Source: Firmicutes bacterium UBA5509
Lineage (GTDB): Bacteria; Bacillota; Proteinivoracia; UBA4975
DNA: 64,000 nt
NCBI GenBank assembly: GCA_002423965.1
Contig: DIOR01000023.1
Span: 90,997-154,996, forward strand
Reading direction: 5' to 3'
The notes beneath the pieces are model-generated. The model had not been told where the DNA came from, searched no databases, and saw only the letters and a program-made list of their open reading frames with translations. The position numbers were made by a program, and so were the translations under genes. This document shows, one piece after another, positions 5,776-62,302 of this stretch; the stretch's first letter is position 1; each line of letters opens with the position of its first letter.

Positions 5776-5889
5776 TTGTGATTTACCGGGGTAGGTACGA
5801 CCGACTATATGTTTTAAACGGGTTTTTGTTTGACAATTGGCTTATTTCCTGATACCTTAAAGAAAATTTGTAAGACTGGGGCGGTGGAC

Positions 5890-6984
5890 ATGGGTGAAGT
5901 AGAAAAATGGATTGCCCTGACTAACGTGCCTAATCTAGGGCCACGGCGAATTGCCAAGGTCTATAGGGAATTGGGGAATATCGATAGTTTCTTTTCCGGC
6001 AATAGCTCCTTGCTTTCCAATGTGCTGAACTTAAAGACGGAAATCATCGACGGAATGTTGCGAGCTGTTGATCTTAAGTATGGTATTTCTGGACTTAAGG
6101 AGTGCCGGAGGCTGGGGATTAGGGTGATCTGTCCTCAATCAGCTGAATATCCACCTTTACTGCTGGACTGTCACGACCCCCCACCTGTACTATACTACTT
6201 GGGTTCATTGCCCCGACAGGATCTGTTGGGGGTGGTGGGTTCACGGAAAGCAACCCGATATGGCAGATGGGCTGCAGGCGCGCTCATACCCCCTTTGTGT
6301 CAGGCTGGATTCGGCATAGCCAGTGGCCTTGCCCTGGGCATTGACGCCAGCGCGCATAAGGCCTGTCTTCAGGTAAAGGGCTATACCATTGCTGTCTTAG
6401 GCAATGGAGTAGACCAGTTCTATCCCTATGACAATAAAGGGCTGCAAAAGGAAATATTAGCTGCCGGTGGCTGCCTATTAAGCGAATTTTCTCCAGGAAC
6501 TAAGCCTCGTCCAGACCATTTTCCCCGCCGCAACCGAATCCTCAGCGGCCTTTGCCGCGGGGTGCTGGTAATTGAGGCGGGAATGAAGAGCGGTGCCATG
6601 ATCACCGTTGGCTTTGCCTTAGAGCAGGGCAGAGATGTGTTTTGTGTTCCCGGTAATATTGACAGTCCTCAGAGCGTGGGTACCAATAATCTCGTGCGCC
6701 TGGGGGCAAAACCAGTATTGTCAGCTGGAGATATTTTGGAAGAGTACCACTTGGATTTGCCCATTCACGTGCACAGTCACAGTGACCCTTCCCTAGACAA
6801 GGAGGAACGGGCTATCCTTAATCTCATAGACCAGCAAGGAGTTGGCCTTGATGATCTATGTTACCAGCTGGAACTTCCCGGGGGAGTTGTCCTTGCCCGG
6901 TTGGCAGCTCTTGAACTAAGGGGCTTAATTGAAAGGCTTCCTGGACAAAAATATATTCGTGCAAGTGGAGGTGCATCTTTGTGA
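5890..6984 (+). CDS. dprA: DNA-processing protein DprA (Smf)
   Basis: Rossmann-fold core GVVGSRKAT...ALGIDA...GGCLLSEF...FPRRNRI plus a C-terminal winged-helix region. The start could be the ATG at 5890 or the TTG at 5830. Confidence 0.85.
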   Translation: MGEVEKWIALTNVPNLGPRRIAKVYRELGNIDSFFSGNSSLLSNVLNLKTEIIDGMLRAVDLKYGISGLKECRRLGIRVICPQSAEYPPLLLDCHDPPPVLYYLGSLPRQDLLGVVGSRKATRYGRWAAGALIPPLCQAGFGIASGLALGIDASAHKACLQVKGYTIAVLGNGVDQFYPYDNKGLQKEILAAGGCLLSEFSPGTKPRPDHFPRRNRILSGLCRGVLVIEAGMKSGAMITVGFALEQGRDVFCVPGNIDSPQSVGTNNLVRLGAKPVLSAGDILEEYHLDLPIHVHSHSDPSLDKEERAILNLIDQQGVGLDDLCYQLELPGGVVLARLAALELRGLIERLPGQKYIRASGGASL

Positions 6985-9038
6985 ATCTAGTAATTGTAGA
7001 ATCACCTGCAAAAGCAAAGACTATCAACAAGTTTCTCGGCAAAAACTATACCGTCAAGCCTTCCATGGGGCATTTAATCGACCTCCCCAAGAGTCAACTG
7101 GGAGTGGAGCCTGATGAAGATTTTAAGGTTAAGTACATTACCATTCGGGGCAAAGGAAAGATATTAGCAGAATTACGTAGACTCGCGGCAAAAGCTGACG
7201 CCGTTTACCTGGCTACTGACCCCGACCGGGAGGGGGAGGCTATAGCATGGCATTTACATAATGAGTTTAAGCTGGACCCATTAGTTCCCTGCCGGGTGGA
7301 ATTTAATGAAATCACAAAGGGGGCAATAAAAAAGGCTTTTACTGCTCCCAGAAGGATAAATTACGATTTGGTGGACGCTCAACAGGCAAGAAGAGTCCTT
7401 GACCGCTTGGTGGGCTACAAAATTAGCCCTATCCTTTGGGAAAAGGTTAGACGGGGACTCAGTGCCGGCCGGGTTCAGTCTGCCACCCTAAACATCCTTT
7501 GCCTTCGTCAGGAAGAAATCGCTAAGTTTACTTCCCGGGAATACTGGACAATCGAAGGACAGTTTGACATCGAATCCACTAAGGTAAAGGCTGTGCTATC
7601 TAAGGTTGACGGCGAAAAACCCGTCTTGGACAATGAGGCTGTCGCAGGTTCTATAGCTCAGCGGGTAAAAAATACCCCCTTCATCCTCAGCAAGCTCATA
7701 TCCAAGCCCCGGCAAAAGCGGCCTAAGCCTCCCTTTATCACTAGCACATTGCAGCAACAGGCTGGCAGTAAGTTAAACTATAGCCCCAAAAAAACCATGG
7801 CCATAGCCCAACAATTATATGAAGGTATCGCCTTGGGTAAGCGAGGGACAACAGGTTTAATTACATACATGCGCACCGACTCAGTGCGTATATCCTCCGA
7901 GATTCAAAAAGCTACCGGGGATTTTTTAGCGGCACGCTTTTCTCCCCAGTATGTGCCCGAGACTCCGCCGGTATATTCCTCCCGCAAAGGTGCTCAGGAA
8001 GCACACGAAGCCATCCGCCCTACTAATGTCACCTTAACCCCAGAGGAAATTCAGGCCTATCTGACTCCTGAGCAGTTTGCTCTCTATCGCTTAATCTGGC
8101 AGCGCTTTGTCATGAGTCAGATGACGCCGGCAAAGTACATGCAGCAAACCGCCACTGTTAGCGGCGATGGGTTGGAATTCTTAGCTTCTGAAATGACCTT
8201 AATCTTTCCGGGATTTCTTGCCGCTGGTAATGGGGAGGAGGAAAAAGAAAAGGGTGTCAATCTGGGGGGTCTTATAGAGGGAAGTCCTGCTCATCTTGAG
8301 ACAGTGGTTCCCATACAGCACTTCACCCAACCCCCCCCAGCATATAGCGAAGCCATGCTTGTAAAAGAGATGGAGAATAAGGGGATAGGTAGGCCCAGCA
8401 CTTATGCACCTACTATTGAAACCCTGCTAAACAGAGGGTACGCCGAAAAGATAAACTCTGCATTGACTCCTACTGAATTGGGTATTACTGTCAACAACCT
8501 TTTGCGGGATTTCTTTCCGGATATCCCCAATCTAGATTTCACCGCCGCCCTTGAGAACCAGCTGGATACTGTGGGAGAAGGGGACTTGCACTGGAAGCAG
8601 GTAGTGGGATCCTTCTACTCCAAGTTTAAAAAATACGTGGAGATTGCCCAGGAAGAAATGGATACAGTCAATATTGAAGATGAGGTCAGTGACGAGATTT
8701 GTGAAAACTGTGGTCAAAACATGGTAATCAAAAGGGGAAGGTTTGGGAAATTCTTGGCCTGTCCTGGTTATCCCCAGTGCAAAAACACAAAGCCTTTGCT
8801 GACAAAAATTAATGTTCCTTGCCCCAAATGCGGGGGCAATATTGTTCAGCGTCGCAGCAAGAAGGGCAGGCTATTTTACGGTTGCGAAAAGTATCCCAGC
8901 TGTGATTTTGTATCTTGGAAGCGACCGGTTAAGGAGACATGTCCTCAGTGCCACTCCATGTTAGTGGTTGAGAAAAAAAACGTCCTGGCCTGCAGCAACC
9001 AGGACTGTGACTACCAGGTAATAAATAGCAATGCATAG
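6981..9038 (+). CDS. topA: DNA topoisomerase I with three C-terminal Zn-ribbon motifs
   Basis: Toprim N-terminus (VIVESPAKAKTI), ITYMRTDS catalytic-Tyr region, and C4 zinc fingers (CENCG, CPKCG, CPQCH). The GTGA at the start overlaps the dprA stop. Confidence 0.95.
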   Translation: MNLVIVESPAKAKTINKFLGKNYTVKPSMGHLIDLPKSQLGVEPDEDFKVKYITIRGKGKILAELRRLAAKADAVYLATDPDREGEAIAWHLHNEFKLDPLVPCRVEFNEITKGAIKKAFTAPRRINYDLVDAQQARRVLDRLVGYKISPILWEKVRRGLSAGRVQSATLNILCLRQEEIAKFTSREYWTIEGQFDIESTKVKAVLSKVDGEKPVLDNEAVAGSIAQRVKNTPFILSKLISKPRQKRPKPPFITSTLQQQAGSKLNYSPKKTMAIAQQLYEGIALGKRGTTGLITYMRTDSVRISSEIQKATGDFLAARFSPQYVPETPPVYSSRKGAQEAHEAIRPTNVTLTPEEIQAYLTPEQFALYRLIWQRFVMSQMTPAKYMQQTATVSGDGLEFLASEMTLIFPGFLAAGNGEEEKEKGVNLGGLIEGSPAHLETVVPIQHFTQPPPAYSEAMLVKEMENKGIGRPSTYAPTIETLLNRGYAEKINSALTPTELGITVNNLLRDFFPDIPNLDFTAALENQLDTVGEGDLHWKQVVGSFYSKFKKYVEIAQEEMDTVNIEDEVSDEICENCGQNMVIKRGRFGKFLACPGYPQCKNTKPLLTKINVPCPKCGGNIVQRRSKKGRLFYGCEKYPSCDFVSWKRPVKETCPQCHSMLVVEKKNVLACSNQDCDYQVINSNA

Positions 9039-10323
9039 AGTTACAGTTATTGGCGGTGGTTTGGCAGGGTGTGAGGCTGCGTGGCAGTTAGCCCTTAGGG
9101 GATGCAAGGTTGCTTTATTTGAGATGCGTCCCCATACATTGACCCCAGCCCATTCCAGTGGCAATTTGGCTGAGTTAGTATGTAGCAACTCCCTGGGGGC
9201 CTTAAACCCAGACAGTGCCGGGGGGTTGCTAAAAGCCGAATTGAGACAGCTTAACTCCCTAATAATGGCTTGCGCCGACGCCGCCCAGGTTCCCGCAGGG
9301 GGGGCCTTGGCAGTGGACCGAGATGTCTTTTCACAGTTGGTAACCAAAAGGATAAGCGAAAATACCAATATCCAAGTGCGCCGGGAGCTATGCACAGATT
9401 TCCCAACTTCCCCGGCGATAATAGCTACTGGTCCTTTGACAGACAACGCCTTTGCCCAGGTCCTAAAGGATAAATTAGGGGAAGGTATGCTCTCTTTCTA
9501 TGACGCCGCCTCCCCAATTATTGAGGCAAGCAGTATCGACTTTTCCCAAGTATTTTGGGGCTCCCGGTATGGAAAAGGCGGCGAAGATTATCTCAACTGT
9601 CCTATGGACTATGAGGAGTACAGCCATTTTTTAACGGAACTTATAGCTGCCAAGACAGTAGTGCAAAAGGAGTTTGAGGAAGGATATTTTGAAAGCTGTC
9701 TGCCTGTGGAAGTGCTGGCGAAACGAGGTCCTAAGACATTGCTCTTTGGACCCCTGAAGCCTGTTGGCCTGTTGGACCCCCGAAGGGAAAAACCACCCTA
9801 TGCCGTTGTCCAGTTACGTCGAGAAGATGCTGAAAGCACCATGTTTAATATGGTAGGCTTTCAGACTAACTTAGTCTGGGGAGAGCAGAAAAGGATTTTT
9901 CGCATGATTCCCGGTTTGCAAAAAGCTGAATTCCATCGCCTGGGCGTAATGCACAGGAACAGCTTTATTAATTCTCCCAAGCTCTTAGTGAAGAATTATC
10001 AACTAAAGGACTTTCCGGGAGTTTATATTGCCGGTCAGCTGGCAGGGGTGGAAGGATATTTGGAGTCCACTGGTTCTGGCCTTGTCGCTGCCTTGCATTT
10101 GTGGGGAGAGTTATGCGGCAGAGAAGTCACTTTGCCTTTAGATACCCTGCTGGGGGCACTGGCAGCATATACAGTGCGACCTAACTCAGATTTTCAACCT
10201 ATGAATGCAAACTTTGGACTTCTACCACCCTTCGCTATGAAATTAAGTAAAAAGGAAAGGCGTCAACAATATTCCGAACGTTCATTGAAAAACTTATTAG
10301 TTTGGGTGAACAATTTTGTATGA
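9031..10323 (+). CDS. trmFO: Methylenetetrahydrofolate--tRNA-(uracil54-C5)-methyltransferase TrmFO (Gid)
   Basis: VTVIGGGLAGCEAAWQLA FAD-binding N-terminus. Sits in the topA-gid-xerC synteny. Confidence 0.95.
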   Translation: MHRVTVIGGGLAGCEAAWQLALRGCKVALFEMRPHTLTPAHSSGNLAELVCSNSLGALNPDSAGGLLKAELRQLNSLIMACADAAQVPAGGALAVDRDVFSQLVTKRISENTNIQVRRELCTDFPTSPAIIATGPLTDNAFAQVLKDKLGEGMLSFYDAASPIIEASSIDFSQVFWGSRYGKGGEDYLNCPMDYEEYSHFLTELIAAKTVVQKEFEEGYFESCLPVEVLAKRGPKTLLFGPLKPVGLLDPRREKPPYAVVQLRREDAESTMFNMVGFQTNLVWGEQKRIFRMIPGLQKAEFHRLGVMHRNSFINSPKLLVKNYQLKDFPGVYIAGQLAGVEGYLESTGSGLVAALHLWGELCGREVTLPLDTLLGALAAYTVRPNSDFQPMNANFGLLPPFAMKLSKKERRQQYSERSLKNLLVWVNNFV

Positions 10324-10380: not shown

Positions 10381-11235
10381 ATAGCCGCAGAGTATGTTCA
10401 ATGGTTAAACGTTAATGGTTACTCACCTGACACCGTCAAGGCATATCAGCATGATGTTGAAGAGTTCTTGCTCTCCCTACCTGACAAGCCGGGTAATGCA
10501 GACCGAAACGACATCCGCCGTTTTTTGGCACTTGTCCAATCTCGTGGTTGTTCAAAACGCAGTGCTGCCCGCAAACTGGCAGCAGTACGTAGTTTTTTCC
10601 GGTTTTGTCATTTAGCCGATGCCGGGGATAATCCCGCCAAGGCAATCCGAACACCAAAGTTTGGTCGCTCCTTACCAACATTTCTTTATCCTGATACCGT
10701 GACTGCGTTGTTGGAATTACCCGATTCCAGTCCTCTGGGTTTAAGGGATAGAGCACTTTTGGAGCTCCTCTACGCTACCGGTATTCGGGTTGGGGAATTA
10801 GTTGCCATGGAGATTGGGGATTATCGGCGGGAAACTCGTCAAATTCTTGTCACAGGTAAGGGAAATAAGCAGCGCTTGTTGCCGGTTCACCAGATGGCAA
10901 TGGCAACATTGGACAGTTATCTTAACCAAGGCCGTCCACAGCTATTGTCTCAGCCCACTTTACGTATTTGGCTTAACAACAAGGGCACCCCCTTAGGACA
11001 AAGGGGAGTTAGGTGGATCTTATCCAAGTACTGCCAACGCTTATGTCTGCTACAATCAGTTTCACCCCACGTCATCAGGCATAGCTTTGCAACTCATCTG
11101 CTTGAAAATGGTGCTGACTTGCGGACGGTTCAGGAGCTATTGGGTCACTCCAGTTTATCTTCAACTCAAATCTATACCCATGTGACCAAGGAACATCTTA
11201 AATCTGTCTATGCCAAAAGCCATCCCCGAGCTTAG
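10381..11235 (+). CDS. xerC: Tyrosine recombinase XerC/CodV. The homologous reading frame opens at 10363 and the first canonical start is the TTG at 10468.
   Basis: The core-binding-domain sequence (AAEYVQWLNVNGYSPDTVKAYQHDVEEF) is in frame upstream of the first ATG/GTG/TTG. AAGGGTG lies 11 nt before an ATA codon at 10381. The C-terminus carries the catalytic RHSFATHLL...HSSLSSTQIYTHV motifs. Confidence 0.85.
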   Translation: MAAEYVQWLNVNGYSPDTVKAYQHDVEEFLLSLPDKPGNADRNDIRRFLALVQSRGCSKRSAARKLAAVRSFFRFCHLADAGDNPAKAIRTPKFGRSLPTFLYPDTVTALLELPDSSPLGLRDRALLELLYATGIRVGELVAMEIGDYRRETRQILVTGKGNKQRLLPVHQMAMATLDSYLNQGRPQLLSQPTLRIWLNNKGTPLGQRGVRWILSKYCQRLCLLQSVSPHVIRHSFATHLLENGADLRTVQELLGHSSLSSTQIYTHVTKEHLKSVYAKSHPRA

Positions 11236-11267
11236 CACCAATTTAATAAAAATAGGAGGTAAAGGCA

Positions 11268-11996
11268 ATGCAAAACTTGTTACAGAAGACCCGACGCTTA
11301 AACAGATTTCTACAGCGTTCTGGGGGTCAAGTTGTTGCTGTCGAAGATTTGGTGAATATTATGGAGGAGTTAATTGACGCCGACGTACTCCTTGTCAATG
11401 ATCAAGGAGATGTTATGGCTAACTCGTCTAACCTTGGAGATGGAAGCAAAATTGATTTCCCCAGAGATCTCAGTGATACTCTCCTCAGTCTAGAGGGCAG
11501 TTTGGCAAATCTCACTGAGGGCACTGAAAAACTATTCCCGGGCAAATTCAGCCTAATTGTACCTGTTAGTGGCGGTAATCAAAGGCTGGGTAACTTGGTG
11601 CTATCACGGAAAAATAAGTTTGAAATTGCTGACCTGATTATTGCTGAACTAGGTGCAACTATCACTGGTCTGGGAGTTATACGGGCAAAAGAAGCCATTC
11701 TCGAAGAAGAAAACCGCAACAGATCTGTGGTCAAAATGGCCCTGGACACCCTGTCCTATTCAGAGCAGGAAGCAGTCGAACATATTTTTAAAGAACTTAA
11801 TGGCAAAGAAGGTCTGTTGGTTGCAAGCAAAATTGCCGACAGAGTTGGCATTACCCGTTCCGTTATCGTCAATGCCCTGCGCAAGTTTGAAAGTGCCGGC
11901 GTTATAGAATCACGTTCCTTGGGTATGAAGGGAACTTTCATCAGGATTCTAAACGACCAGTTGCTACCAGAGCTGGAAAAACTCCGGAACAGATAA
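11268..11996 (+). CDS. codY: GTP/BCAA-sensing global regulator CodY
   Basis: Near-identity to B. subtilis CodY over the C-terminal HTH (ASKIADRVGITRSVIVNALRK.ESAGVIESRSLGMKGT). AGGAGG Shine-Dalgarno. Confidence 0.95.
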   Translation: MQNLLQKTRRLNRFLQRSGGQVVAVEDLVNIMEELIDADVLLVNDQGDVMANSSNLGDGSKIDFPRDLSDTLLSLEGSLANLTEGTEKLFPGKFSLIVPVSGGNQRLGNLVLSRKNKFEIADLIIAELGATITGLGVIRAKEAILEEENRNRSVVKMALDTLSYSEQEAVEHIFKELNGKEGLLVASKIADRVGITRSVIVNALRKFESAGVIESRSLGMKGTFIRILNDQLLPELEKLRNR

Positions 11997-12025
11997 GCCC
12001 TCTTACGGGGGCTCTTTTTCTTTCT
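11997..12025 (+). terminator. Short hairpin (AGCCC/GGGCT) followed by CTTTTTCTTTCTG after codY
   Basis: Inverted repeat plus a U-rich tail; the stem is only 5 bp. Confidence 0.45.
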
Positions 12026-12095
12026 GCATTATTCAAGCAGGAAAAAGCGGCCAATTTGTCGAAATTAGTTTAAAACACGCACAGGGGGAGAGGAA

Positions 12096-12464
12096 TTGGG
12101 TCTAAATAATCGCATTCTTGTTGTAGATGATGCAGCCTTCATGCGGATGATGATTAGAGATATTCTCACCAAAAATAATTTCGAAGTAGTAGGTGAGGCC
12201 ACCAATGGCGATGAAGCTGTCAGCAAATATATTGAATTAAAGCCCGACCTGGTCACCCTGGATATTACCATGCCCGGCATGGATGGGGTCACCGTCCTAA
12301 AAAAAATTCGGGAGCATGATCCCTCAGCTCGGGTTGTAATGTGTTCAGCCATGGGGCAGCAGGCCATGGTTGTTGAGGCTATCCAAAATGGGGCCAGGGA
12401 CTTTATCAATAAGCCCTTTCATCCCCAAAAGGTTGTTGAAATACTCCGCCGGGCATTGAGATAG
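12096..12464 (+). CDS. cheY: Chemotaxis response regulator CheY (stand-alone receiver)
   Basis: 122 aa. ILVVDDAAFMR...DITMPGMDG...NKPF receiver motifs. TTG start after GGGGGAGAGG. Confidence 0.9.
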   Translation: MGLNNRILVVDDAAFMRMMIRDILTKNNFEVVGEATNGDEAVSKYIELKPDLVTLDITMPGMDGVTVLKKIREHDPSARVVMCSAMGQQAMVVEAIQNGARDFINKPFHPQKVVEILRRALR

Positions 12465-14441
12465 GTGATGACTGTGGACAATATAGACTTAAACACATAC
12501 CTGCCCATCTTTATAGAAGAGACCAAAGAAAATATCCAGCAGATTTCTTCTAACCTTCTGCGTTTAGAGCAAGATGAAAATGATGTTGAGGCTATTAACG
12601 AAATTTTTCGGGCTGCTCACACCCTTAAAGGAATGTCTGCCACTATGGGTTATTCCGATATTAGTCAGCTAGCCCACCAGGCTGAGAATCTACTGGATGA
12701 GGTTCGCAACAATAAAACCCATATTACTTCTACTATGATTACCGGCTTTTTTCACATAGTCGATGAGTTTGAAGCTCAGCTGAATTCCTTAGTGGAAACT
12801 GGTGAACCCAGCAAAATCTCACAAGAACGATACCAAGAGATTCTCGCTTTCTTTTCACCGTCTCAGGTAGTGGCTCCCCTAGAGATTATGGAGAAGATCA
12901 GTGAAACGTCAAGGGAAGAAGCTACCGAGGGCGAATGTTTCCTCTTAGAAATATTTTTTAGCAGGGACTGCCAACTTCCTCAAGCTAGGGCGATGATTAT
13001 CTGCAACCAGCTTGCCTCAGTTGGCAAATTGCTTGAGACTTCACCTTCTCAAAAGCATTTGGCTGAACGGGACCAATTGGATAAGCTTACCTGCCGGGTT
13101 TCGGACATTCGTCCTGAGCAGGTCCGGGCTCTTCTGGAGGGTGGAGTTGAAGTTGATTATTACACCATCGAAAAGTACAATTGTGACCAGGAGATTGCGC
13201 CCCAGGTAACAGAGGAAGAAGGAGGGTTTCGTCAGCCTCAGGACAGTACTGATAACTCCGATTCCCACCATGATCCTCTTGTACTCCGGCATACAATTCG
13301 AGTGGATACCGAGAAACTTGATCAGCTTCTCAATTTGGTCAGTGAACTGGTTATCAATAAGACATCCCTACTGCAAGCGGCTACCAACTTTCCCTTACTG
13401 GCTGATGGGGTTGAACATCTCCATCGCCTTACTAGCGAATTGCAAGTAATTGTTATGAAAATGAGGATGATTCCCTTAGAAACAGTCTTTAACCGCTTCC
13501 CCCGCATGGTAAGGGATACCGCAATGGCTGTGGATAAATTGGTTAACTTCGAGATTCGCGGCGCAGAAACAGAGCTAGATAGGACTATAATTGATGATAT
13601 CTCCGATCCCCTTGTTCACTTGCTCCGCAATGCCATTGACCATGGAATCGAAGCTGTGGATCGCCGGGTCAGCATTGGCAAGCCAAGGACAGGTACCATT
13701 CGCCTTGAGGCCTACCAAACAGGAAATCAAGTTGTTATTGAAGTTTCTGATGATGGTCACGGCCTTGATATAGAACAAATACGAGCAAAATCCCGAGAAA
13801 TGGGTTTGCCAGGAGTGGATGCTGATGCAGGTGAATTGGCCAATTTGATTTTCACTCCCGGCTTCAGCACAGTGGAGAGCATCACTGATTTATCTGGCCG
13901 GGGCGTGGGCCTGGACGTGGTAAAAAACTCAATTGAAGCCCTGGGCGGTTCCACCGATGTGTATTCTCGCCCCAATGAGGGCACAACCTTTAAGATTTCT
14001 CTTCCTCTAACTTTAGCAATTATCCAAGGGCTATTGGTCAAATGTAGTGAGGAAATTTACGTCATCCCCTTGAGTTATATCGCGGAAACAGGAATTATCT
14101 TTCCCGAAGATATTCAGACCATTGGTCAACAAGAGATTGTCATGTTGCGAGGAAAGGTACTACCAATTGTCTGTTTAAATAAGCTCCTGGAGATTGAAGG
14201 TCCTGGTCCTACTGAAGAATTGAGCTTGGTTGTGGTCAGATACGGAGAACGGCAAATTGGCATTATCGTAGATGACTTGCTGGGTCAGCAAGATATTGTT
14301 ATAAAAAATGTCAACTGGGGTGAACAATTTTTCCGCAGCTTCCTTGGATGCTCAATACTTGGCGACGGGTCAGTGGTCATGATACTGGACATCAATGTTC
14401 TCCTATCAGTTGTAAGAGCGAGGGAGGTCAATCATGCTTAA
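12465..14441 (+). CDS. cheA: Chemotaxis histidine kinase CheA
   Basis: HPt domain (AAHTLKGMSATMGY), P2, dimerisation and HATPase_c domains (GRGVGLDVVK), and a C-terminal CheW-like domain. Confidence 0.95.
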   Translation: MMTVDNIDLNTYLPIFIEETKENIQQISSNLLRLEQDENDVEAINEIFRAAHTLKGMSATMGYSDISQLAHQAENLLDEVRNNKTHITSTMITGFFHIVDEFEAQLNSLVETGEPSKISQERYQEILAFFSPSQVVAPLEIMEKISETSREEATEGECFLLEIFFSRDCQLPQARAMIICNQLASVGKLLETSPSQKHLAERDQLDKLTCRVSDIRPEQVRALLEGGVEVDYYTIEKYNCDQEIAPQVTEEEGGFRQPQDSTDNSDSHHDPLVLRHTIRVDTEKLDQLLNLVSELVINKTSLLQAATNFPLLADGVEHLHRLTSELQVIVMKMRMIPLETVFNRFPRMVRDTAMAVDKLVNFEIRGAETELDRTIIDDISDPLVHLLRNAIDHGIEAVDRRVSIGKPRTGTIRLEAYQTGNQVVIEVSDDGHGLDIEQIRAKSREMGLPGVDADAGELANLIFTPGFSTVESITDLSGRGVGLDVVKNSIEALGGSTDVYSRPNEGTTFKISLPLTLAIIQGLLVKCSEEIYVIPLSYIAETGIIFPEDIQTIGQQEIVMLRGKVLPIVCLNKLLEIEGPGPTEELSLVVVRYGERQIGIIVDDLLGQQDIVIKNVNWGEQFFRSFLGCSILGDGSVVMILDINVLLSVVRAREVNHA

Positions 14442-14880
14442 ACAATTTGTTGTTTTTCCTCTTGAAGACGAGCTATATGGCGTAGACATCCATCAAGTAA
14501 TGCGCATCGAAAAGATGCTGCCCTTGACACGGGTGCCAAATGCCCCATCATTTGTCATTGGGGTGTGCAATCTACGGGGCAGCGTTATTCCCGTCATTGA
14601 TTTAAAGCAACGTCTAACTCTACCTAGTAATATAGATGAAAATGCGAAAATCATTTTCGTCCATGTAGGCAAGCAGGTTGTGGGCATGACAATAGACTCG
14701 TCTGTTGATGTTACTTCCATCGACTCAGATGAAATCGAACCTTCTCCAAGCCTAGTCACAGGTATAGACTCCCAGTTTATTCAGGGTGTCGCCAAAATCA
14801 GCAACCGATTATTGATTGTCCTAGACATGGAGCGGGTTTTAACATTAGATCAACTCAATGTCTTAGCTGACTTGGATTAG
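14434..14880 (+). CDS. cheW: Chemotaxis coupling protein CheW
   Basis: 148 aa CheW-like domain. GAGGGAGG Shine-Dalgarno. Overlaps cheA by 8 nt. Confidence 0.9.
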   Translation: MLKQFVVFPLEDELYGVDIHQVMRIEKMLPLTRVPNAPSFVIGVCNLRGSVIPVIDLKQRLTLPSNIDENAKIIFVHVGKQVVGMTIDSSVDVTSIDSDEIEPSPSLVTGIDSQFIQGVAKISNRLLIVLDMERVLTLDQLNVLADLD

Positions 14881-14883
14881 CCC

Positions 14884-15495
14884 ATGGAAAAGCTAAACTT
14901 TAACGAGCAGGACTTGCTGACAGAGGTAGGTACAATAGGAACTGGACATGCCGCAACAGCGATGGCAGATATTCTTGGGCAAAAGATCACCATTACAGTG
15001 CCCAATGTGGAATTGGTTAGCTTCAACCGGGTGGCGGAATATATCGGTGCATCAGGAAGTAATTTGGCATGCATTTACTTTGATGTCCTGGGAGATCTAC
15101 CGGGGACTGTCTTGGTGATGTTTACCGAGAACTCTGCCCGCAGGCTGTTGAATACTTTTATGCCCGACGAGCCCCTGATCTTTTTAGAGCTTTCTCAGCT
15201 TCAGCAGTCGGCATTAATGGAAATGGGGAACATCCTTTCGGGAGCTTATCTCACGGCTCTGGCGGACTTTTCTAACCAGCGAATGTCCCTCAGTGTACCG
15301 CGGCTAGCTGTAGACATGGCTGAGGCCATGCTCAGCGTCCCCTTGATTAAGCTGGGCAGCGAGACCGACCGGGCCTTATTGATTCAGGCAAGGTTTTTTG
15401 AGGAATCTAGTAACCGCGGATATATTGTGTTTTTCCCAAACCAAGGGGCTACTACCAGACTGCTAGAGATCTTCGGGGTGGGAAGCGATGGATAA
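14884..15495 (+). CDS. cheC: CheC-family CheY-P phosphatase
   Basis: 203 aa, two CheC-like repeats (GTIGTGHAATAMAD...EMGNILSGAYLTALAD). Confidence 0.85.
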   Translation: MEKLNFNEQDLLTEVGTIGTGHAATAMADILGQKITITVPNVELVSFNRVAEYIGASGSNLACIYFDVLGDLPGTVLVMFTENSARRLLNTFMPDEPLIFLELSQLQQSALMEMGNILSGAYLTALADFSNQRMSLSVPRLAVDMAEAMLSVPLIKLGSETDRALLIQARFFEESSNRGYIVFFPNQGATTRLLEIFGVGSDG

Positions 15496-15964
15496 CTATC
15501 AAATTGGCATGGCTCAACTATATGTCGCAAAAAGCCCTGGGATAATCCGCTCTACCGGCTTGGGTTCCTGCATTGGCATTATTCTCTACGACCCTTTTGC
15601 CAAAGTCGGGGGCATGGCCCACGCAATGCTGCCAAAACATCGCCCGGGCAGAGGGGACAATAAAGCTAAATATGTGGACACAGCAATAAATACAATGCTA
15701 GAGGATATGGAGGCCCTGGGTGCCGGCCCCATGAATATCATTGCCAAGCTTGCAGGGGGGGCTCAGATGTTTCCCGACAGTGACAAGGATAGCCTGATGA
15801 TAATTGGCGAAAAAAATATCGCTGCCGCTGATGAACATCTTGGGACCTTGGGGATTCCCATTGTTGCCAAAGATGTTGGAGGCCATTCGGGGCGAACCCT
15901 AGAGTTGGATTGCAGAGATGGTACATTGTACATAAAGACTGTCACTACCGAAACCAAAATTTAA
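15488..15964 (+). CDS. cheD: Chemoreceptor glutamine deamidase CheD
   Basis: 158 aa. GLGSCIGIILYDP...GGMAHAMLP matches CheD. Overlaps cheC. Confidence 0.9.
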   Translation: MDNYQIGMAQLYVAKSPGIIRSTGLGSCIGIILYDPFAKVGGMAHAMLPKHRPGRGDNKAKYVDTAINTMLEDMEALGAGPMNIIAKLAGGAQMFPDSDKDSLMIIGEKNIAAADEHLGTLGIPIVAKDVGGHSGRTLELDCRDGTLYIKTVTTETKI

Positions 15965-16022
15965 CAAGCTGGCGTAATAACTGCGGTCAAAATAGATATA
16001 CTAGCCTAGGGGGTGTATCAAA

Positions 16023-16604
16023 ATGACCAAAAACAGACGCTGGCTTTCTTTTTTGACAGGAATGTTTACTGGAACTTTACTTGTTCTGATTGTTCTAGCA
16101 GGAGTAATATACTTAGGGGGGCACCAGATCTGGCTACTGCGCATCAATACCCATGAAGTGTCAGACAGGCTGGAGGGTGCCGTCAAACTTATGGCTGAGG
16201 AAACACTGCCGATATTTATTGAGCAAGTAAAGCCCGCGATTCCTGAAATGGTGGCTGAAAATGTCAGCCCCCAGTTTTCTGATGTGAAATTTCAGCTTGG
16301 AGGCGAAGAGTTTTCCTTGCCCAAGGAACTTGCAGAACGCATGGAAGCCAACTACCGGGCTAGTTTGATCATAGCTATAGGCGAATTCCTGGACTCCTTG
16401 CCCCTGGAAGAAATGGGCGAAGAATTAGGCAAGGAAGCCGGGGAGATAGTAGAAAATGCTATTTATGCTGAATTTAACACTCGGCTCTTTGATATTGCTC
16501 TGGCGGACTTTTTTTCAGTGCCAGTGCGCGTTGAGCTTATGGACCAGCCCGGTGAAAAGCCCTTTCGGCTGCAACTGACAGCAGAGACCCGACCCAAACA
16601 ATAA
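16023..16604 (+). CDS. Single-pass membrane protein with an acidic cytoplasmic domain, in the position of B. subtilis swrB/ylxL
   Basis: N-terminal transmembrane segment (FLTGMFTGTLLVLIVLAGVIYL), acidic remainder. The assignment rests on its position between cheD and rpsB; no direct motif evidence. Confidence 0.55.
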   Translation: MTKNRRWLSFLTGMFTGTLLVLIVLAGVIYLGGHQIWLLRINTHEVSDRLEGAVKLMAEETLPIFIEQVKPAIPEMVAENVSPQFSDVKFQLGGEEFSLPKELAERMEANYRASLIIAIGEFLDSLPLEEMGEELGKEAGEIVENAIYAEFNTRLFDIALADFFSVPVRVELMDQPGEKPFRLQLTAETRPKQ

Positions 16605-16607
16605 ACC

Positions 16608-16636
16608 TTGCCAACTAACGCTGAATCTGGTATACT
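16608..16636 (+). promoter_or_regulatory. Sigma-A type promoter for rpsB-tsf (TTGCCA-17 nt-TATACT), followed by a leader of about 90 nt
   Basis: The -35/-10 hexamers and the 17-nt spacing are read directly from the sequence. Confidence 0.65.
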
Positions 16637-16729
16637 GGGCAAGTAAAATTACACACACTTGGCGGCAAACCTTTCAGTGACAGGTTCAAGGTGCCAGGTG
16701 GAGGAAAAACTGAGAGGAGGAAAATGCAT

Positions 16730-17431
16730 ATGTCAGTAGTCAACATGAAACAACTGTTAGAAGCAGGAGTTCACTTTGGTCATCAGACCAGAAGGTGGAA
16801 CCCCAAAATGGCAGCCTATATTTTCACTGAGCGCAATGGCATATATGTCATTGACTTACAAAAAACTGTGCAAAAGTTAGAAGAGGCCTACAACTTCGTA
16901 AAGAATCTTACTATGGAGGGGGGCACCCTTCTATTTGTTGGCACTAAGAAGCAAGCTCAGGCTTCCATCGAGGAAGAGGCCAATCGCTGCGGAATGTTTT
17001 ACGTCAACCAACGCTGGCTGGGTGGCATGCTTACCAATTTTGCTACTATTAGCAAACGGGTAGCGCGCCTAAAACAGTTAGAAGCCATGGAAGAAGACGG
17101 CAGTTACTCAGTCTTACCCAAGAAAGAAGTCATACAGCTACGCCACGAGCGGGATAAGTTGGATAAGTTTCTTAAGGGTATTAAGGACATGGGCAAATTG
17201 CCTGACGCTCTATTTATCGTTGATCCCCGCAAGGAACGGATTGCCATAGCTGAAGCAAGAAAATTAGGTATCCCTATCATTGCTATTGTCGATACCAACT
17301 GCGATCCTGATGAAATTGATTATATCATCCCCGGCAATGATGATGCGATTAGAGCGGTCAACCTTTTTTCCTCAAAAATGGCTGATGCTGTTCTTGAAGG
17401 CAAGCAGGGTGAACAATTAACTGAGGAATAG
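16730..17431 (+). CDS. rpsB: 30S ribosomal protein S2
   Basis: [33 protein letters not shown] lies 9 nt upstream of the ATG. Confidence 0.95.
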
Positions 17432-24346: not shown

Positions 24347-24976
24347 ATGAATGTTGCAGCGATAATCCCTGCTTATAATGAGGAAAATACCATTGCCGGT
24401 GTTGTCCAGGTTTTGCTTGCATCTCCCAGCATTCAACAGGTTATCGTAGTCAGTGACGGCTCCACCGACAATACTGCTGCTGTCGCTGAACAGATGGGGG
24501 CCCAAGTGGTGAGTTTATCCGATAACTTGGGAAAGGGCGGTGCAATGCTTGCAGGGGTCAAACATACCGACGCCGAGTACGTAATGTTTATTGATGCCGA
24601 CCTCATCGGACTTAAAGGGTACCATATTGATAGTATGCTCTCGCCAATCAAAAGCGGCGAAGTGGAGGCCACCTTGGGCGTGTTTAAAAAAGGGCGGGGG
24701 GCCACCGACTTGGCCCAAATAATCGCTCCTAGATTATCTGGTCAAAGGGTAATCAAGACATCCCTGTTGGAGTTAGTCAAGGGCATGGAAATCTCCAGGT
24801 TTGGCGTCGAGCTTGCTTTAAACCGCGTAGTAGAAGAACAAAACGTTAAGTGGATAACGGTTGAGTTGCCTGAACTCAGTCATGTTATGAAAGAAGAGAA
24901 ACTGGGTTTTTGGAAGGGTTTCTGGGCTAGGCTGAAGATGTATAAAGAATTACTCTCTTACCGGATAAAAAATTAA
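24347..24976 (+). CDS. Family-2 glycosyltransferase (small, 209 aa)
   Basis: AIIPAYNEE...VVSDGSTD...FIDADL (DxD) GT2 motifs. Confidence 0.75.
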   Translation: MNVAAIIPAYNEENTIAGVVQVLLASPSIQQVIVVSDGSTDNTAAVAEQMGAQVVSLSDNLGKGGAMLAGVKHTDAEYVMFIDADLIGLKGYHIDSMLSPIKSGEVEATLGVFKKGRGATDLAQIIAPRLSGQRVIKTSLLELVKGMEISRFGVELALNRVVEEQNVKWITVELPELSHVMKEEKLGFWKGFWARLKMYKELLSYRIKN

Positions 24977-24988
24977 CGGAGGGGTTGT

Positions 24989-25618
24989 ATGGTCATTGCC
25001 CTGCGGCTTGTTCTGGCGGTAATCTTTGGAAGCATCATTGGCCTAGAAAGAGAGCTGCACAACCATCCGGCGGGATTTCGCACTCATATCTTGGTGTGCA
25101 TTGGTTCTACCTTGTTTACTTTAGTATCTATTAGCTCCTTTGGCGGCGACGATTCCTCCCGAGTTGCCGCTCAAATCGTCAGCGGCATTGGCTTCTTAGG
25201 AGCGGGGACAATTTTGCGGGAGGGTGCCACTATCCGAGGCCTTACTACCGCTGCCAGCTTGTGGTCGGTGGCCGGGGTGGGTATGGCAATTGGTACTGGT
25301 TACTACTGGGGAGCCACACTGACTACCGCACTGATGGTAGTCGTCTTATTCTTCTTTTACAGTCTGGAAAAAAGGATCTGGCAAAGAACTAAGACAGTGG
25401 ATATTACAGTGGCAGATGTTCCTGGCCAGTTGGGAAAAGTGGCTTCTAAGCTGGGTGAGATGGGTGTATCCATCAAGTCAGTGGATATTTCCCCTGAGTC
25501 GTCAAAGCGGGTTGCTATCCAATTCATTCTACAGATGCCTGGAACCATGGAAATCCACCAGGTGGCAGGTTCACTGGCTCAATTGGAGGGGGTCAGCAAC
25601 ATTAAGACCCAGGATTGA
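24989..25618 (+). CDS. MgtC/SapB-family membrane protein with a C-terminal ACT-like domain
   Basis: LVLAVIFGSIIGLERE...GFRTHILV...GIGFLGAGTIL motifs. Confidence 0.8.
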   Translation: MVIALRLVLAVIFGSIIGLERELHNHPAGFRTHILVCIGSTLFTLVSISSFGGDDSSRVAAQIVSGIGFLGAGTILREGATIRGLTTAASLWSVAGVGMAIGTGYYWGATLTTALMVVVLFFFYSLEKRIWQRTKTVDITVADVPGQLGKVASKLGEMGVSIKSVDISPESSKRVAIQFILQMPGTMEIHQVAGSLAQLEGVSNIKTQD

Positions 25619-25674
25619 CTTAGGATACTCAGTTAGTTTAGGTATCTTTCAATGTAAGACAAGGAGTGTTTTTC

Positions 25675-26736
25675 ATGGATGTAGTAGAGTTTGTCGAGGC
25701 TATTGATCAGCTTTCCGCTGAAAAGGGAATCGAAAAAGAATTACTCTTAGAAGCTGTTGAGGCTGCTCTTGTATCTGCCTACAAAAAGAATTTTTCTTCA
25801 TTGCAAAATGTCAGGGTGGACCTTAATCGCAAAACTGGTGAGATCAAGGTGCTATCCCAAAAAGAAGTGGTGGAATCTGTTGACAATTCCTTAGAACAGA
25901 TATCTCTCCGGGATGCTTTAAAGATCAGTCCCGCATATACCTATGGAGATCTGGCAGAAATAGAGGTCACCCCTAAGAACTTTGGCCGCATTGCAGCTCA
26001 GGCTGCAAAACAGGTAGTCATTCAAAAGATTCGTGAGGCAGAGCGGGATAAGATCTATAAGGAATTTTCCAATAGGGAAAGTGAAATTGTCACTGGCATT
26101 GTACAAAATATCGAGCACGACAATGTCTTTGTGGACATTGGCAAGACTGAAGCAATTCTCCCTCCCTCAGAACAATTGGCCAACGATATTTATGATTCTC
26201 AGGCTCGCATGAAGTTTTTTGTCTTGGAAGTAAAAAACTCTCCCAAGGGTCCCCAGGTTTTTGTCTCCAGGACTCATCCCAGCTTAATTAAAAGGCTGTT
26301 TGAAGCCGAAGTGCCTGAGATCTTCGACGGCACTGTTGAAATCAAAGGGGTGTCTCGGGAAGCAGGTCAGCGCTCTAAGCTGGCTGTCTGGTCAGACAAT
26401 GCGGACGTTGATCCCGTGGGGGCCTGCGTGGGACCCAAAGGTATGCGGGTGCAAGCTGTTGTCAGCGAACTCAAGGGAGAAAAAATTGACATAGTGCGCT
26501 GGAGTCCGGAAGCCGAAGTCTTTGTTGCCAATGCATTGAGTCCAGCTCAAGTTACCAAAGTATTTGCTGACTCCGAAACCAGGATTGCTACAGTAATTGT
26601 CCCTGATAATCAACTATCCTTGGCCATTGGTAAAGAAGGTCAAAATGCCCGCCTGGCAGCTAAGTTGACTAGCTGGAAGATTGACATCAAGAGTGAAAGT
26701 CAGTATGAGGAAGGTGAACTTGGTGCAGAAAGTTAA
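25675..26736 (+). CDS. nusA: Transcription termination/antitermination factor NusA
   Basis: N-terminal domain, S1 and two KH domains. AAGGAG lies 8 nt before the ATG. Confidence 0.95.
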   Translation: MDVVEFVEAIDQLSAEKGIEKELLLEAVEAALVSAYKKNFSSLQNVRVDLNRKTGEIKVLSQKEVVESVDNSLEQISLRDALKISPAYTYGDLAEIEVTPKNFGRIAAQAAKQVVIQKIREAERDKIYKEFSNRESEIVTGIVQNIEHDNVFVDIGKTEAILPPSEQLANDIYDSQARMKFFVLEVKNSPKGPQVFVSRTHPSLIKRLFEAEVPEIFDGTVEIKGVSREAGQRSKLAVWSDNADVDPVGACVGPKGMRVQAVVSELKGEKIDIVRWSPEAEVFVANALSPAQVTKVFADSETRIATVIVPDNQLSLAIGKEGQNARLAAKLTSWKIDIKSESQYEEGELGAES

Positions 26737-45186: not shown

Positions 45187-47409
45187 ATGCCTAGAACTCG
45201 ACGAAGACGCCGGCGAAAGGACCGGCAGGTTCACAATGAGGTCGGTGGCCTGATTATAGTTGCTCTTGCCGTTCTTGCAGGGGCAAGTCTATTTTCTCCT
45301 GATAATGTCGGTAAAATAGGCGGCTTACTTGCTCGCATGCAGTGGACTATTGCTGGCGAATACGCACTTTTTATTCCGTTTTCCTTGCTCTTATGGGGAA
45401 TAAGGATGATTTTCTTCCCCAATTCTCCCTTGTTTGCCCGCAGGGCTATTGGCAGCATGCTGCTAATTCTATGTATATTAACTGCAGTCCACATAGCTGC
45501 CGCTGATAAAGACTATTCCTCAGACCACCTATTGGCTATTTCCCGAGGGGATCCTATTATCGGCGGGGGAATTTTGGGTGCCTTAGGGGCCATTGGTTTG
45601 CTCAAGGCCTTTGGCCTGGTAGGGGGAGTTGTCATCCTGATTTCGGTGGTGTCAATTGGACTCTTCCTGCTCCTTAACATATCCTTGAAAGAGTTTGTCC
45701 AGGGTTTCTCCCGACTGGCCAAATCGGCAGCTAAGGCAATGGTTAAATCCATGTCCCGTCTAAACACTGCAGTGGGGAAATTGGTTAAATCCTCAGGTAC
45801 TCCTATAAAGGACAAGCCTGCTCCAGAGCCTGTCAATATTCACGACTATCAGGTTCCCGTCACAGACGATGGGGGGGATTCTACACCCCAGGAGCCGATT
45901 ATTGTTGAAGCTGAGCCATTGCTTCCTGAAACCATAGAGGAAGTTCTAGAGTTAGAACATGAAGAACCTGAACTTTACCAACTGCCGCCTTTGAACTTGT
46001 TGCAAAAAACCGTTCGCCTCAAAGACCCTCAGGGGAGGAGAGAGCTGGTTTCCCAGGCGGATATTTTAGAAGAGACTTTGGCTAGTTTTGGCATAGAGGC
46101 AAAGGTCATCAATGTTCACCGGGGGCCCACCATTACCAGGTTTGAAATTCAGCCAGCTTCAGGTGTCAAGGTCAGCAGAATTGTCAACCTTGCCGATGAC
46201 TTGGCCTTGAATCTGGCGGCTACAGGAGTAAGAATTGAGGCACCTATTCCAGGCAAGTCTGCCGTGGGCCTAGAATTGGCCAATAAATCCAAAGCTACTG
46301 TGTATTTGCGGGAAGTGCTGGAGACCAGCGAATTCCTTGATAACCCCTCGAAATTAGCAATTGCCCTGGGTAAGGATATTGCAGGGGCGACGGTTATTGC
46401 GGATTTGATGGACATTCCTCACCTCCTGATTGCTGGGGCCACAGGTTCTGGTAAGTCTGTCTGTCTCAATTCGATTATCATATCCCTATTGTACAAAGCC
46501 AAACCTTCGGAACTAAAGTTCTTGCTGATAGATCCGAAAGTTGTGGAATTAAACGTCTACAACGGACTGCCTCACTTGCTTTGCCCCGTTGTCACCGATC
46601 CACGCATGGCAGCCCAGGGGCTAAAAAACATTGTCAAGGAAATGGAGCAGCGCTATCATCTCTTTGCAGAGGTCGGAGCCAGGGATATACTGCGCTATAA
46701 TGAATCTGCCCAGGAAAGAGGGGAGAAACCCCTGCCCTATGTCATCGTCATAATTGACGAGCTGGCAGACCTAATGATGACTTCTCCTACAGAGGTAGAG
46801 GACTCTATCTTTAGGATTGCCCAGAAGTCTCGAGCCGCTGGAATTCACCTTATTGTAGCAACCCAGCGCCCTTCAGTGGATGTCATTACGGGGGTTATAA
46901 AAGCCAATCTTACAACGCGAATGGCCTTTGCCGTTTCCTCCAGTGCTGACTCCAAGACAATTCTCGACATGGGGGGAGCAGAAAAACTTTTGGGTCGTGG
47001 AGATATGCTCTTCTTCCCATTTGGGGCCTCCAAGCCACAGCGGCTCCAAAGTGCGTACATTTCCGATGAAGAAGTTGAAAATGTCGTCGCCCATGTCCTT
47101 GCTCAGTCCATGCCCGTGCTACGCACTGATTTCCTACAGCCCCATGAAGGTGAGACTGAGAAAGAGCTTTTGGAGATGGACGAATTGCTACCGGAAGCTG
47201 CAAGGATGATTGTTGAAAGTGGCCAAGCCTCAATTTCCATGTTGCAAAGGCGCCTGCGCGTTGGATATACCAGAGCCGGAAGGCTAATTGACAGTATGGA
47301 ACGGTTGTCCATTGTCGGGGGTCATGAGGGCAGTAAAGCCAGAAAAATCTTAGTTACCCTGGCACAGTTGGAAGAAATCCTAGAAAACCAAAATTTATAT
47401 ACCCCATAA
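45187..47409 (+). CDS. ftsK: DNA translocase FtsK/SpoIIIE
   Basis: N-terminal transmembrane domain, linker, motor domain (HLLIAGATGSGKSV...IIDELADLM), and a C-terminal gamma winged helix. Confidence 0.95.
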   Translation: MPRTRRRRRRKDRQVHNEVGGLIIVALAVLAGASLFSPDNVGKIGGLLARMQWTIAGEYALFIPFSLLLWGIRMIFFPNSPLFARRAIGSMLLILCILTAVHIAAADKDYSSDHLLAISRGDPIIGGGILGALGAIGLLKAFGLVGGVVILISVVSIGLFLLLNISLKEFVQGFSRLAKSAAKAMVKSMSRLNTAVGKLVKSSGTPIKDKPAPEPVNIHDYQVPVTDDGGDSTPQEPIIVEAEPLLPETIEEVLELEHEEPELYQLPPLNLLQKTVRLKDPQGRRELVSQADILEETLASFGIEAKVINVHRGPTITRFEIQPASGVKVSRIVNLADDLALNLAATGVRIEAPIPGKSAVGLELANKSKATVYLREVLETSEFLDNPSKLAIALGKDIAGATVIADLMDIPHLLIAGATGSGKSVCLNSIIISLLYKAKPSELKFLLIDPKVVELNVYNGLPHLLCPVVTDPRMAAQGLKNIVKEMEQRYHLFAEVGARDILRYNESAQERGEKPLPYVIVIIDELADLMMTSPTEVEDSIFRIAQKSRAAGIHLIVATQRPSVDVITGVIKANLTTRMAFAVSSSADSKTILDMGGAEKLLGRGDMLFFPFGASKPQRLQSAYISDEEVENVVAHVLAQSMPVLRTDFLQPHEGETEKELLEMDELLPEAARMIVESGQASISMLQRRLRVGYTRAGRLIDSMERLSIVGGHEGSKARKILVTLAQLEEILENQNLYTP

Positions 47410-48438: not shown

Positions 48439-48543
48439 GGCAATAACTTCCTTTCTGTTTTCTGTATTATCATACTGCCGGCACAAAGTTTCAGTGCAAT
48501 TAGAGGGCAAATTTGATATACTCTTTTTATGGAGTGAAGGTCA

Positions 48544-62208: not shown

Positions 62209-62236
62209 TCCTGCCTTTAGGCAGGAATTTCTGTGT
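62209..62236 (+). terminator. Hairpin TTCCTGCC-ttta-GGCAGGAA + TTTCTGTG after the PHP gene
   Basis: Perfect 8-bp stem with a short U-rich tail. Confidence 0.6.
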
Positions 62237-62302
62237 ACAGGGCGAATATTGTATTGTAATGGCCTAATGGACCAGGACAAGTCCAATATTGGAGGTGAGT
62301 TC

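Follow-up and report, generated by a model that had tools for sequence, protein, structure and literature searches.

In Bacillus subtilis, the fla/che promoter and flgB come next after codY and lead into a long operon whose chemotaxis pathway belongs to the flagellar 'F1' class of Wuichet and Zhulin. More generally, chemotaxis systems like those of Bacillus and Thermotoga are seen as serving flagella. Here we describe a locus that occupies the same chromosomal site but carries only the signalling half of such a pathway. It lies in a window of 64 kb (the whole stretch of DNA analysed: positions 90,997 to 154,996 of contig DIOR01000023.1, from Firmicutes bacterium UBA5509), where a listing of open reading frames (ORFs), combined with profile searches, defines the block codY-cheY-cheA-cheW-cheC-cheD-X193-rpsB, all on the forward strand. 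X193 is our name for a membrane-anchored protein of 193 residues. From the proteins of this block, their relatives and their surroundings we argue that the phosphorylated response regulator, CheY-P, may no longer act on the flagellar switch in the canonical way.

The initial annotation of the window had placed a chemotaxis core at the usual fla/che site, with codY followed directly by cheY, cheA, cheW, cheC, cheD, an acidic protein with a single transmembrane segment, and rpsB. It had also reported that flagellar structural genes and sigD were missing from the site, and that the window contained no cheR, cheB or gene for a methyl-accepting chemotaxis protein (MCP). Each of these statements holds. 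The site is bounded by codY and rpsB, and the flanking gene order on both sides matches that of B. subtilis. Elsewhere in the window, and in the 10 kb that precede it, there are only housekeeping and sporulation-related genes, and no flagellar, sigD, cheB, cheR, MCP or pilus genes were found; over those 10 kb, and inside the window, a complete fla operon can be excluded.

This arrangement is shared by a clade of uncultured Bacillota represented by metagenome-assembled genomes (MAGs). Six relatives were identified by a CheA scan of species-representative genomes and three deeper ones through a protein database; the sequence covered amounts to about 84 kb around the locus in the window species and about 7-22 kb per relative. 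The order codY-cheY-cheA-cheW-cheC-cheD is present in 10 of 10 clade loci, over CheA identities that range from 82% down to 49%. X193 follows cheD in nine of the ten (the contig of the tenth ends too early to show it), and rpsB comes next after X193 in every locus whose contig reaches that far. The exact CheW protein of the window recurs on 22 public contigs, the longest of 376 kb, from MAGs and metagenomes, including GCA_036789325.1, JGI 3300038316 and 3300038318, and several sequencing runs. Neither cheR nor cheB is present in the window or the clade loci, and a tblastn search of 250 kb of clade DNA with 23 flagellar, sigD, cheB and motAB queries returned only cross-matches of the kind expected (FliY to CheC, and FlhF to FtsY and Ffh). 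The genome of one relative is small, 1.84 Mb at 92% completeness in a biogas-MAG supplement, which says nothing on its motility.

The five che reading frames are intact (12096-15964), and their products have the features expected of functional signalling proteins. CheA contains domains P1 to P5 (Hpt, P2, H-kinase_dim, HATPase_c and CheW in Pfam), and its translation shows the H box (AAHTLKG) and the N (HLLRNAIDHG), G1 (DDGHG), F (FTPGFST) and G2 (GRGVGLD) motifs. The best solved-structure match of CheY is Thermotoga maritima CheY (4IGA/1TMY, E 1e-48); D11, D12, D56, S84, F103 and K106, which include the phospho-acceptor and switch residues, align with their counterparts in T. maritima and Escherichia coli CheY. 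CheC matches T. maritima CheC (1XKR/2F9Z, E 3e-26) and its second E-x2-N site is intact. Its first site (residues 10-24) reads E-V-G-T, as against E-I-G-N; each of the 10 clade members has Thr or Ser where Proteinivorax and T. maritima keep the Asn. CheD matches T. maritima CheD (2F9Z_C, E 2e-32), with conservation of the residues aligned to the catalytic Thr, Cys and His. Both CheC and CheD match their Pfam families, and the corresponding NCBIfam models match below their cutoffs. We describe CheC as a predicted CheY-P phosphatase and CheD partner, and CheD as a predicted chemoreceptor deamidase. As far as sequence can tell, cheY-cheA-cheW-cheC-cheD is a working core chemosensory operon.

CheY and the output of the pathway

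A similarity search with CheY returned 41 clade clusters with identities of at least 80%, after which identity falls sharply to 74% or less. The clade proteins were compared with the 81 nearest outgroup CheYs and with an independent set of 80 metagenomic ones (63-71% identity, among the matches listed), 161 together. The changes E61G, A67V, V105N, Q109H, D111Q, R112K and K119R are specific to the clade (Table 1). Scored over 12 positions, clade proteins have 10-12 derived states and outgroup proteins 0-2, and intermediates are absent.

Table 1. Residues at clade-specific positions of CheY, with the number of proteins that carry them
Position	Clade	Nearest outgroups	Metagenomic outgroups
61	G 41/41	E 80/81	E 76/80
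67	V 41/41	A 81/81	A 80/80
105	N 41/41	V 81/81	V 80/80
109	H 39/41	Q 81/81	Q 79/80
111	Q 39/41	D 76/81	
112	K 41/41	R 81/81	R 80/80
119	R 39/41	K 81/81	K 78/78 scored

We take N105 to correspond to V108 of E. coli CheY and R119 to K122, an assignment that is consistent with the positions of D57, T87, Y106 and K109 in the E. coli protein. The key FliM-binding residues of E. coli CheY are A90, K92, I95, A99, Y106, V108, K119 and K122 (PMC8225110). By sequence comparison, two of these eight positions carry a clade-specific change, V108N and K122R in E. coli numbering. Outgroup cheY genes that stand alone, away from flagellar genes, keep the ancestral residues, so separation from flagellar genes does not by itself explain the change. 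Loss of the first-site Asn of CheC occurs in parallel with the CheY substitutions, in all clade members. CheY changed in a burst on the clade's stem and has been tightly conserved since, a pattern that looks like the mark of a changed interaction partner. A CheY-binding peptide of the FliM/FliY type (LSQxEIDALL) was found in no frame of the window or the clade loci, with Proteinivorax FliY as the positive control.

One of the solitary outgroup genes deserves separate mention. This orphan cheY (L055, 9989-10369) is 68% identical to that of the window and has all the ancestral residues. Its neighbours are ftsW, a penicillin-binding protein gene, a NUDIX gene, iscS, iscU and mnmA, and no che or flagellar genes lie within 10 kb of it.

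The model that we favour is the following. Chemoreceptors encoded elsewhere would control CheA through CheW; because CheD is intact, we expect such receptors to exist. CheA would phosphorylate CheY, and dephosphorylation and feedback to the receptors would fall to CheC and CheD, on the pattern of B. subtilis and T. maritima. CheY-P would have given up its canonical partner, the N-terminal peptide of FliM or FliY, for a target that is either different or strongly altered, and the clade would then be non-flagellated or equipped with an unusual switch. Transcription would probably start from a sigma-H-like promoter, and expression would thereby be linked to the onset of stationary phase. To the central claim, that the output of CheY-P is no longer the canonical FliM/FliY peptide, whether in a non-flagellated clade or through a strongly altered switch, we assign a probability of about 0.5. 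A more specific version is offered tentatively and at rather less than even odds: an anaerobic, spore-forming clade of Bacillota would have lost its flagella and kept a CheC/CheD-type Che system under a sigma-H-like promoter, with the target-binding face of CheY re-tuned to a non-flagellar output such as type IV pili or another cellular process. The initial annotation had offered two readings: flagellar genes moved or lost, with a signalling-only module kept at the site, or a Che system that controls something other than flagella. Between moved genes on the one hand and loss or retargeting on the other, the altered surface predicted for CheY tilts the choice towards retargeting.

Several points weigh against retargeting. 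The absence of flagellar genes applies to about 84 kb around the locus and about 7-22 kb per relative, and such genes could lie elsewhere in the genomes. To our knowledge, Che systems that have CheC and CheD and are close to the fla/che CheAs are flagellar in bacteria. In Clostridium acetobutylicum, codY adjoins rpsB and the flagellar regulon lies elsewhere, a precedent for relocation. The face of CheY that has changed also binds CheA P2 and CheC, and the substitutions could represent co-evolution within the module; equally, they could reflect co-evolution with a diverged or replaced FliM. K122R is a conservative change, and the effect of V108N is a prediction. Finally, the putative promoter of the operon has GAAA in its -10 element where the sigma-H consensus has GAAT.

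The most serious competitor to retargeting is ordinary flagellar chemotaxis, in which the flagellar regulon, with sigD, MCPs, cheR and cheB, was moved elsewhere in the genome or replaced there by an acquired set, the che genes alone remained at the old site, and CheY-P still binds FliM. On this account the CheY substitutions would be co-evolution with a diverged switch, with the P2 domain or with CheC. We consider it quite plausible, although we would not bet on it at even money. The strong selection seen on all five che genes is expected if they serve motility, CheA and CheY both belong to fla/che-operon families, and an intact CheD implies ordinary receptors. Some outgroups of the flagellated type have cheY away from flagellar genes, and Clostridium species have codY next to rpsB with their flagellar genes elsewhere. 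However, V105 (E. coli V108) is invariant in the 161 outgroup CheYs, orphans included, and is Asn in every clade CheY. Relocation would also need a second flagellar locus to be in place before the native one was removed by three clean deletions; sigD has gone from the locus; and the relative's genome is small, at about 2 Mb.

Descent and maintenance of the locus

Among cultured organisms the nearest relative by CheA (46% identity) is Proteinivorax hydrogeniformans (CP159485.1). Its locus begins fliM-fliY-cheY-fliO-fliP-fliQ-fliR-flhB-flhA-flhF-flhG-pilZ and continues cheA-cheW-cheC-cheD-sigD-FapA-...-187 aa-rpsB-tsf-pyrH-frr, where 187 aa denotes a protein of 187 amino acids. Identities between the window and Proteinivorax are 68% for CheY, 46% for CheA, 48% for CheW, 38% for CheC and 37% for CheD, and X193 aligns over its full length with the 187-residue protein directly 5' of rpsB (E 4.5e-16). 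Because the Proteinivorax operon has the same cheA-cheW-cheC-cheD tail and an X193 homologue before rpsB, the comparison gives good support to the conclusion that the module is the in-place remainder of an ancestral Bacillota fla/che operon after several clean deletions. The earlier suggestion that a signalling-only Che module had been retained at the fla/che site draws its support from the same full operon and shared tail order.

Other homologues agree with this descent. The next CheA matches, at about 40-45%, are from Alkalicella, Anaerobranca, Brevibacillus and Geobacillus. The nearest named CheA matches that we recognised belong to motile Bacillota, and the one genomic context inspected is a fla/che operon; the grouping with fla/che-operon CheAs is one by nearest named homologues. 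The two nearest CheYs from outside the clade are encoded in fliM-fliY-cheY-fliO...flhG-(pilZ)-cheB-cheA operons, with cheB directly 5' of cheA, and 70 of the 80 metagenomic outgroup CheYs lie in such fliM-fliY-cheY-fliO...cheB-cheA operons. At the window locus, cheY abuts cheA and the spacer between cheD and X193 is 58 nt; these short spacers contain no remnants of lost genes.

In-place reduction is the simplest history. At least three blocks would have been deleted on the stem of the uncultured clade, with the signalling genes spared: ahead of cheY, flgB...fliY; between cheY and cheA, fliO...flhG together with pilZ or cheB; and between cheD and X193, sigD through a YceG-like gene. It is improbable that a stand-alone che operon instead entered a codY-rpsB gap, in an ancestor that had never had flagellar genes there, and resembles the fla/che tail by coincidence. 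Stand-alone che operons occur in Clostridia, and codY-rpsB adjacency in Clostridium, but the fla/che tail of Proteinivorax has the identical order, cheA-cheW-cheC-cheD and then the X193 homologue before rpsB. The closest CheY homologues, and the CheA homologue whose context was inspected, lie in fla/che operons, and the flanking order matches that of Bacillota that carry fla/che.

On one outgroup contig (L021, 1-20369) the flagellar operon appears as short ORFs, with FliR, FlhB, FlhA and FliY each in three pieces; this could be due to long-read indel errors or to an operon that is truly decaying.

The ratio of nonsynonymous to synonymous substitution rates (dN/dS) was calculated by the Nei-Gojobori method for a pair of clade loci, L008 and L009, between which dS is unsaturated (0.4-0.8). 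It is 0.025 for cheY, 0.089 for cheA, 0.083 for cheW, 0.094 for cheC, 0.062 for cheD and 0.124 for X193. Among the neighbouring genes, topA has 0.088, trmFO 0.097, codY 0.085 and rpsB 0.030. The che genes are thus under purifying selection like their housekeeping neighbours. Across the clade, identity is 82-94% for CheY, 79-93% for RpsB and 59-80% for TopA. Polymorphism within the species, at most 9 single-nucleotide polymorphisms in 20 kb, is too low for a ratio of nonsynonymous to synonymous polymorphism. That the che genes are leftovers of a lost flagellar system on their way to becoming pseudogenes would fit the disappearance of all flagellar genes and sigD from the locus and the first CheC active site without its Asn, but it is extremely unlikely, because dN/dS (0.02-0.13) is at the level of the housekeeping neighbours and CheY is as conserved across the clade as ribosomal protein S2, and because the reading frames are intact in 10 lineages, with conservation of the candidate promoter, the ribosome-binding site and the overlaps between genes.

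Promoter, X193 and surroundings

The promoters of the fla/che operon are of the sigma-A and sigma-D types. In the window, the spacer between codY and cheY is 99 nt long. The hairpin and T-run that follow codY (Table 2) are kept at the same place in the relatives. The sequence GCAGGAAWW-N11/12-GTCGAAA occurs upstream of cheY in 10 of 10 clade loci, about 60-110 nt before the cheY start, and is followed by a strong ribosome-binding site; the motif has a single copy in the window at up to two mismatches. The sigma-H consensus is RNAGGAWWW-N11/12-RNNGAATWW (PMC8510167). Measured against it, the -35 half, GCAGGAAAA, is perfect and the spacer fits in all ten loci, and the -10 half has one mismatch. 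We infer a candidate sigma-H-type promoter, which would replace the lost fla/che promoters. The stretch from cheD to rpsB shows no terminator-like site, which makes it probable that X193 is transcribed with the che genes as the last gene of the operon.

Two other readings of the region upstream of cheY were rejected. As a sigma-D promoter, with TAAA-N15-GCCGATAT taken as the consensus, it fits poorly at -35 and in spacing. As a CodY box, taken to be AATTTTCWGAAAATT, it matches 10-11 of 15 positions in some members, and the left half is not conserved in the clade. Elsewhere in the window there is one other strict sigma-H-like match, GCAGGAATT-N11-GGCGAATAT at 62221-62249, which has the canonical GAAT and is located where a GntR-family gene (62249-63283) begins.

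X193 has an isoelectric point of 4.7 and one N-terminal hydrophobic helix at about residues 8-32. It matches no Pfam or NCBIfam family. A profile search gathers 96 representative clusters of hypothetical proteins of about 165-190 residues, with members in Anaerobranca and Proteinivorax, and X193 thus stands for an unannotated family of membrane-anchored proteins. Its AlphaFold model is confident (pLDDT 93); it consists of the membrane helix, helical hairpins and a small sheet, and has no convincing neighbour among solved structures. The initial annotation had noted that this gene is in the position of swrB. SwrB of B. subtilis is encoded by the last fla/che gene and activates flagellar type III export. 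The position is indeed the same: X193 is the last gene before rpsB, its product is of similar length (193 versus 167 residues), and both proteins have a single N-terminal membrane helix. Identity with SwrB, in contrast, was not adopted. X193 has no family match, and Lys and Arg residues on the N-terminal side of its helix predict, by the positive-inside rule, an N-in, C-out topology, which is opposite to the N-out, C-in topology measured for SwrB; the two were set apart without a direct sequence alignment.

Upstream of the che genes the order is smc-ftsY-ylxM-ffh-rpsP-...-trmD-rplS-...-dprA-topA-trmFO-xerC-codY. Downstream it is rpsB-tsf-pyrH-frr-uppS-cdsA-dxr-rseP-...-nusA-infB-rbfA-truB-ribF-rpsO-pnp, followed by ...-dpaAB-asd-dapG-dapA-rnj-...-ftsK-...-pgsA-cinA-recA-rny-ymdB. 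There are no Rfam matches in the window. Three local features were noted. In the window xerC adjoins codY directly (10468-11996), with no hslV or hslU between them, and the same is true of the relatives' loci; B. subtilis has hslV and hslU (clpQ and clpY) between codV/xerC and codY. At 24347-26736, a GT2 glycosyltransferase gene and a gene for an MgtC-ACT protein lie between ispG and nusA, with no rimP-like ORF directly 5' of nusA; the corresponding place upstream of nusA holds proS, polC and rimP in B. subtilis. An ORF of 371 residues without a Pfam match (47395-48510, reverse strand) is the sole sizeable minus-strand gene in a long run of forward genes, and is called as 363 residues on a JGI contig, between ftsK and a DUF3388 gene.

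Table 2. Features in and around the che block, in window coordinates
Feature	Position	Strand	Remarks
dprA	5830-6984	+	
topA	6981-9038	+	
trmFO	9031-10323	+	
xerC	10468-11235	+	
codY, upstream anchor	11268-11996	+	GAF-like and HTH_CodY domains; NCBIfam CodY equivalog 278.7 bits (cutoff 255)
Terminator-like hairpin and T-run closing the codY transcript	11996-12023	+	7-bp stem with 5 G-C pairs, then CTTTTTCTTT
Two-part promoter-like element	12037-12066	+	GCAGGAAAA-N12-GTCGAAATT; sigma-H resemblance
cheY	12096-12464	+	Response_reg E 4e-33; TTG start; strong ribosome-binding site GGGGGAGAGG
cheA	12465-14441	+	Gene callers start at ATG 12468, 657 aa; P1-P5
cheW	14434-14880	+	CheW domain E 6e-35; 8-nt overlap with the end of cheA
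cheC	14884-15495	+	CheC domain matched twice
cheD	15488-15964	+	CheD domain E 4e-31; overlaps the end of cheC
X193, 193 aa, acidic, membrane-anchored	16023-16604	+	Outside all Pfam and NCBIfam families
Sigma-70-type promoter-like site for rpsB	16608-16636	+	TTGCCA-17-TATACT, extended -10 TG, 10/12 matches
rpsB, downstream anchor	16691-17431	+	Ribosomal_S2 E 9e-104; gene callers start at 16730

Comparison with known systems

Set against pathways that are regarded as flagellar, the locus is a natural experiment in which the operon lost its flagellar half and the signalling half was kept, under selection of housekeeping strength, over a divergence at which TopA falls to 59% identity. If retargeting is correct, this would be the first bacterial case for the Che class that contains CheC and CheD, and the CheY substitutions of Table 1 would be candidates for residues that switch specificity. 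If the clade lacks flagella, it becomes testable what other outputs Gram-positive anaerobes place under the pathway, which residues of CheY give it a new target, and how an operon is rewired after losing its promoter and sigma factor. If flagella are encoded elsewhere, the locus would be a tidy case of operon fission, still with a change at an otherwise invariant FliM-contact residue of CheY. Anaerobic digesters and pit mud commonly harbour these organisms, whose motility, or whatever other behaviour the pathway may govern, bears on the finding of syntrophic partners.

Proteinivorax is the closest comparison. It shares orthologous che genes, the X193 homologue before rpsB and the downstream order rpsB-tsf-pyrH-frr-uppS-cdsA. 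Unlike the window species, it has kept its fliM, fliY, fliO-R, flhB, flhA, flhF and flhG, the gene for the PilZ protein, and sigD; it has FapA, DUF6115 and YceG-like genes around its che genes, and its CheY has the ancestral residues. With the B. subtilis fla/che operon the window locus has in common the site between codY and rpsB, the cheA-cheW-cheC-cheD tail, the CheA domains, the combination of CheC with CheD, and a single-domain CheY. It differs in having no flagellar structural or export genes, cheB, sigD or swrB, in a cheY that abuts cheA, in an upstream element of its own that resembles a sigma-H promoter, and in the fixed changes in CheY.

The T. maritima proteins CheY, CheC and CheD (4IGA, 1XKR and 2F9Z) are the closest solved structures, and the active-site residues and the second CheC site are alike. 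Two differences stand out: the window CheY has Asn in place of the T. maritima Val on strand beta-5, on the face that binds the FliM peptide (4IGA), and the first site of CheC is E-V-G-T, not E-I-G-N.

Che-like systems that do not act on flagella offer a possible analogy for retargeting. The type IV pilus systems Pil-Chp and cyanobacterial Tax, and systems with alternative cellular functions such as Myxococcus Che3 and Dif, all have a CheA-CheW-CheY core without a flagellar switch. Such systems differ from the window locus in belonging to separate CheA classes or in having adjacent dedicated adaptors (such as PilG/H/I/J, or CheF in archaea), none of which was seen there. The archaeal Che system, which acts on the archaellum through CheF, is alike in a further respect: it is of the type that contains CheC and CheD, and its CheY has a different target.

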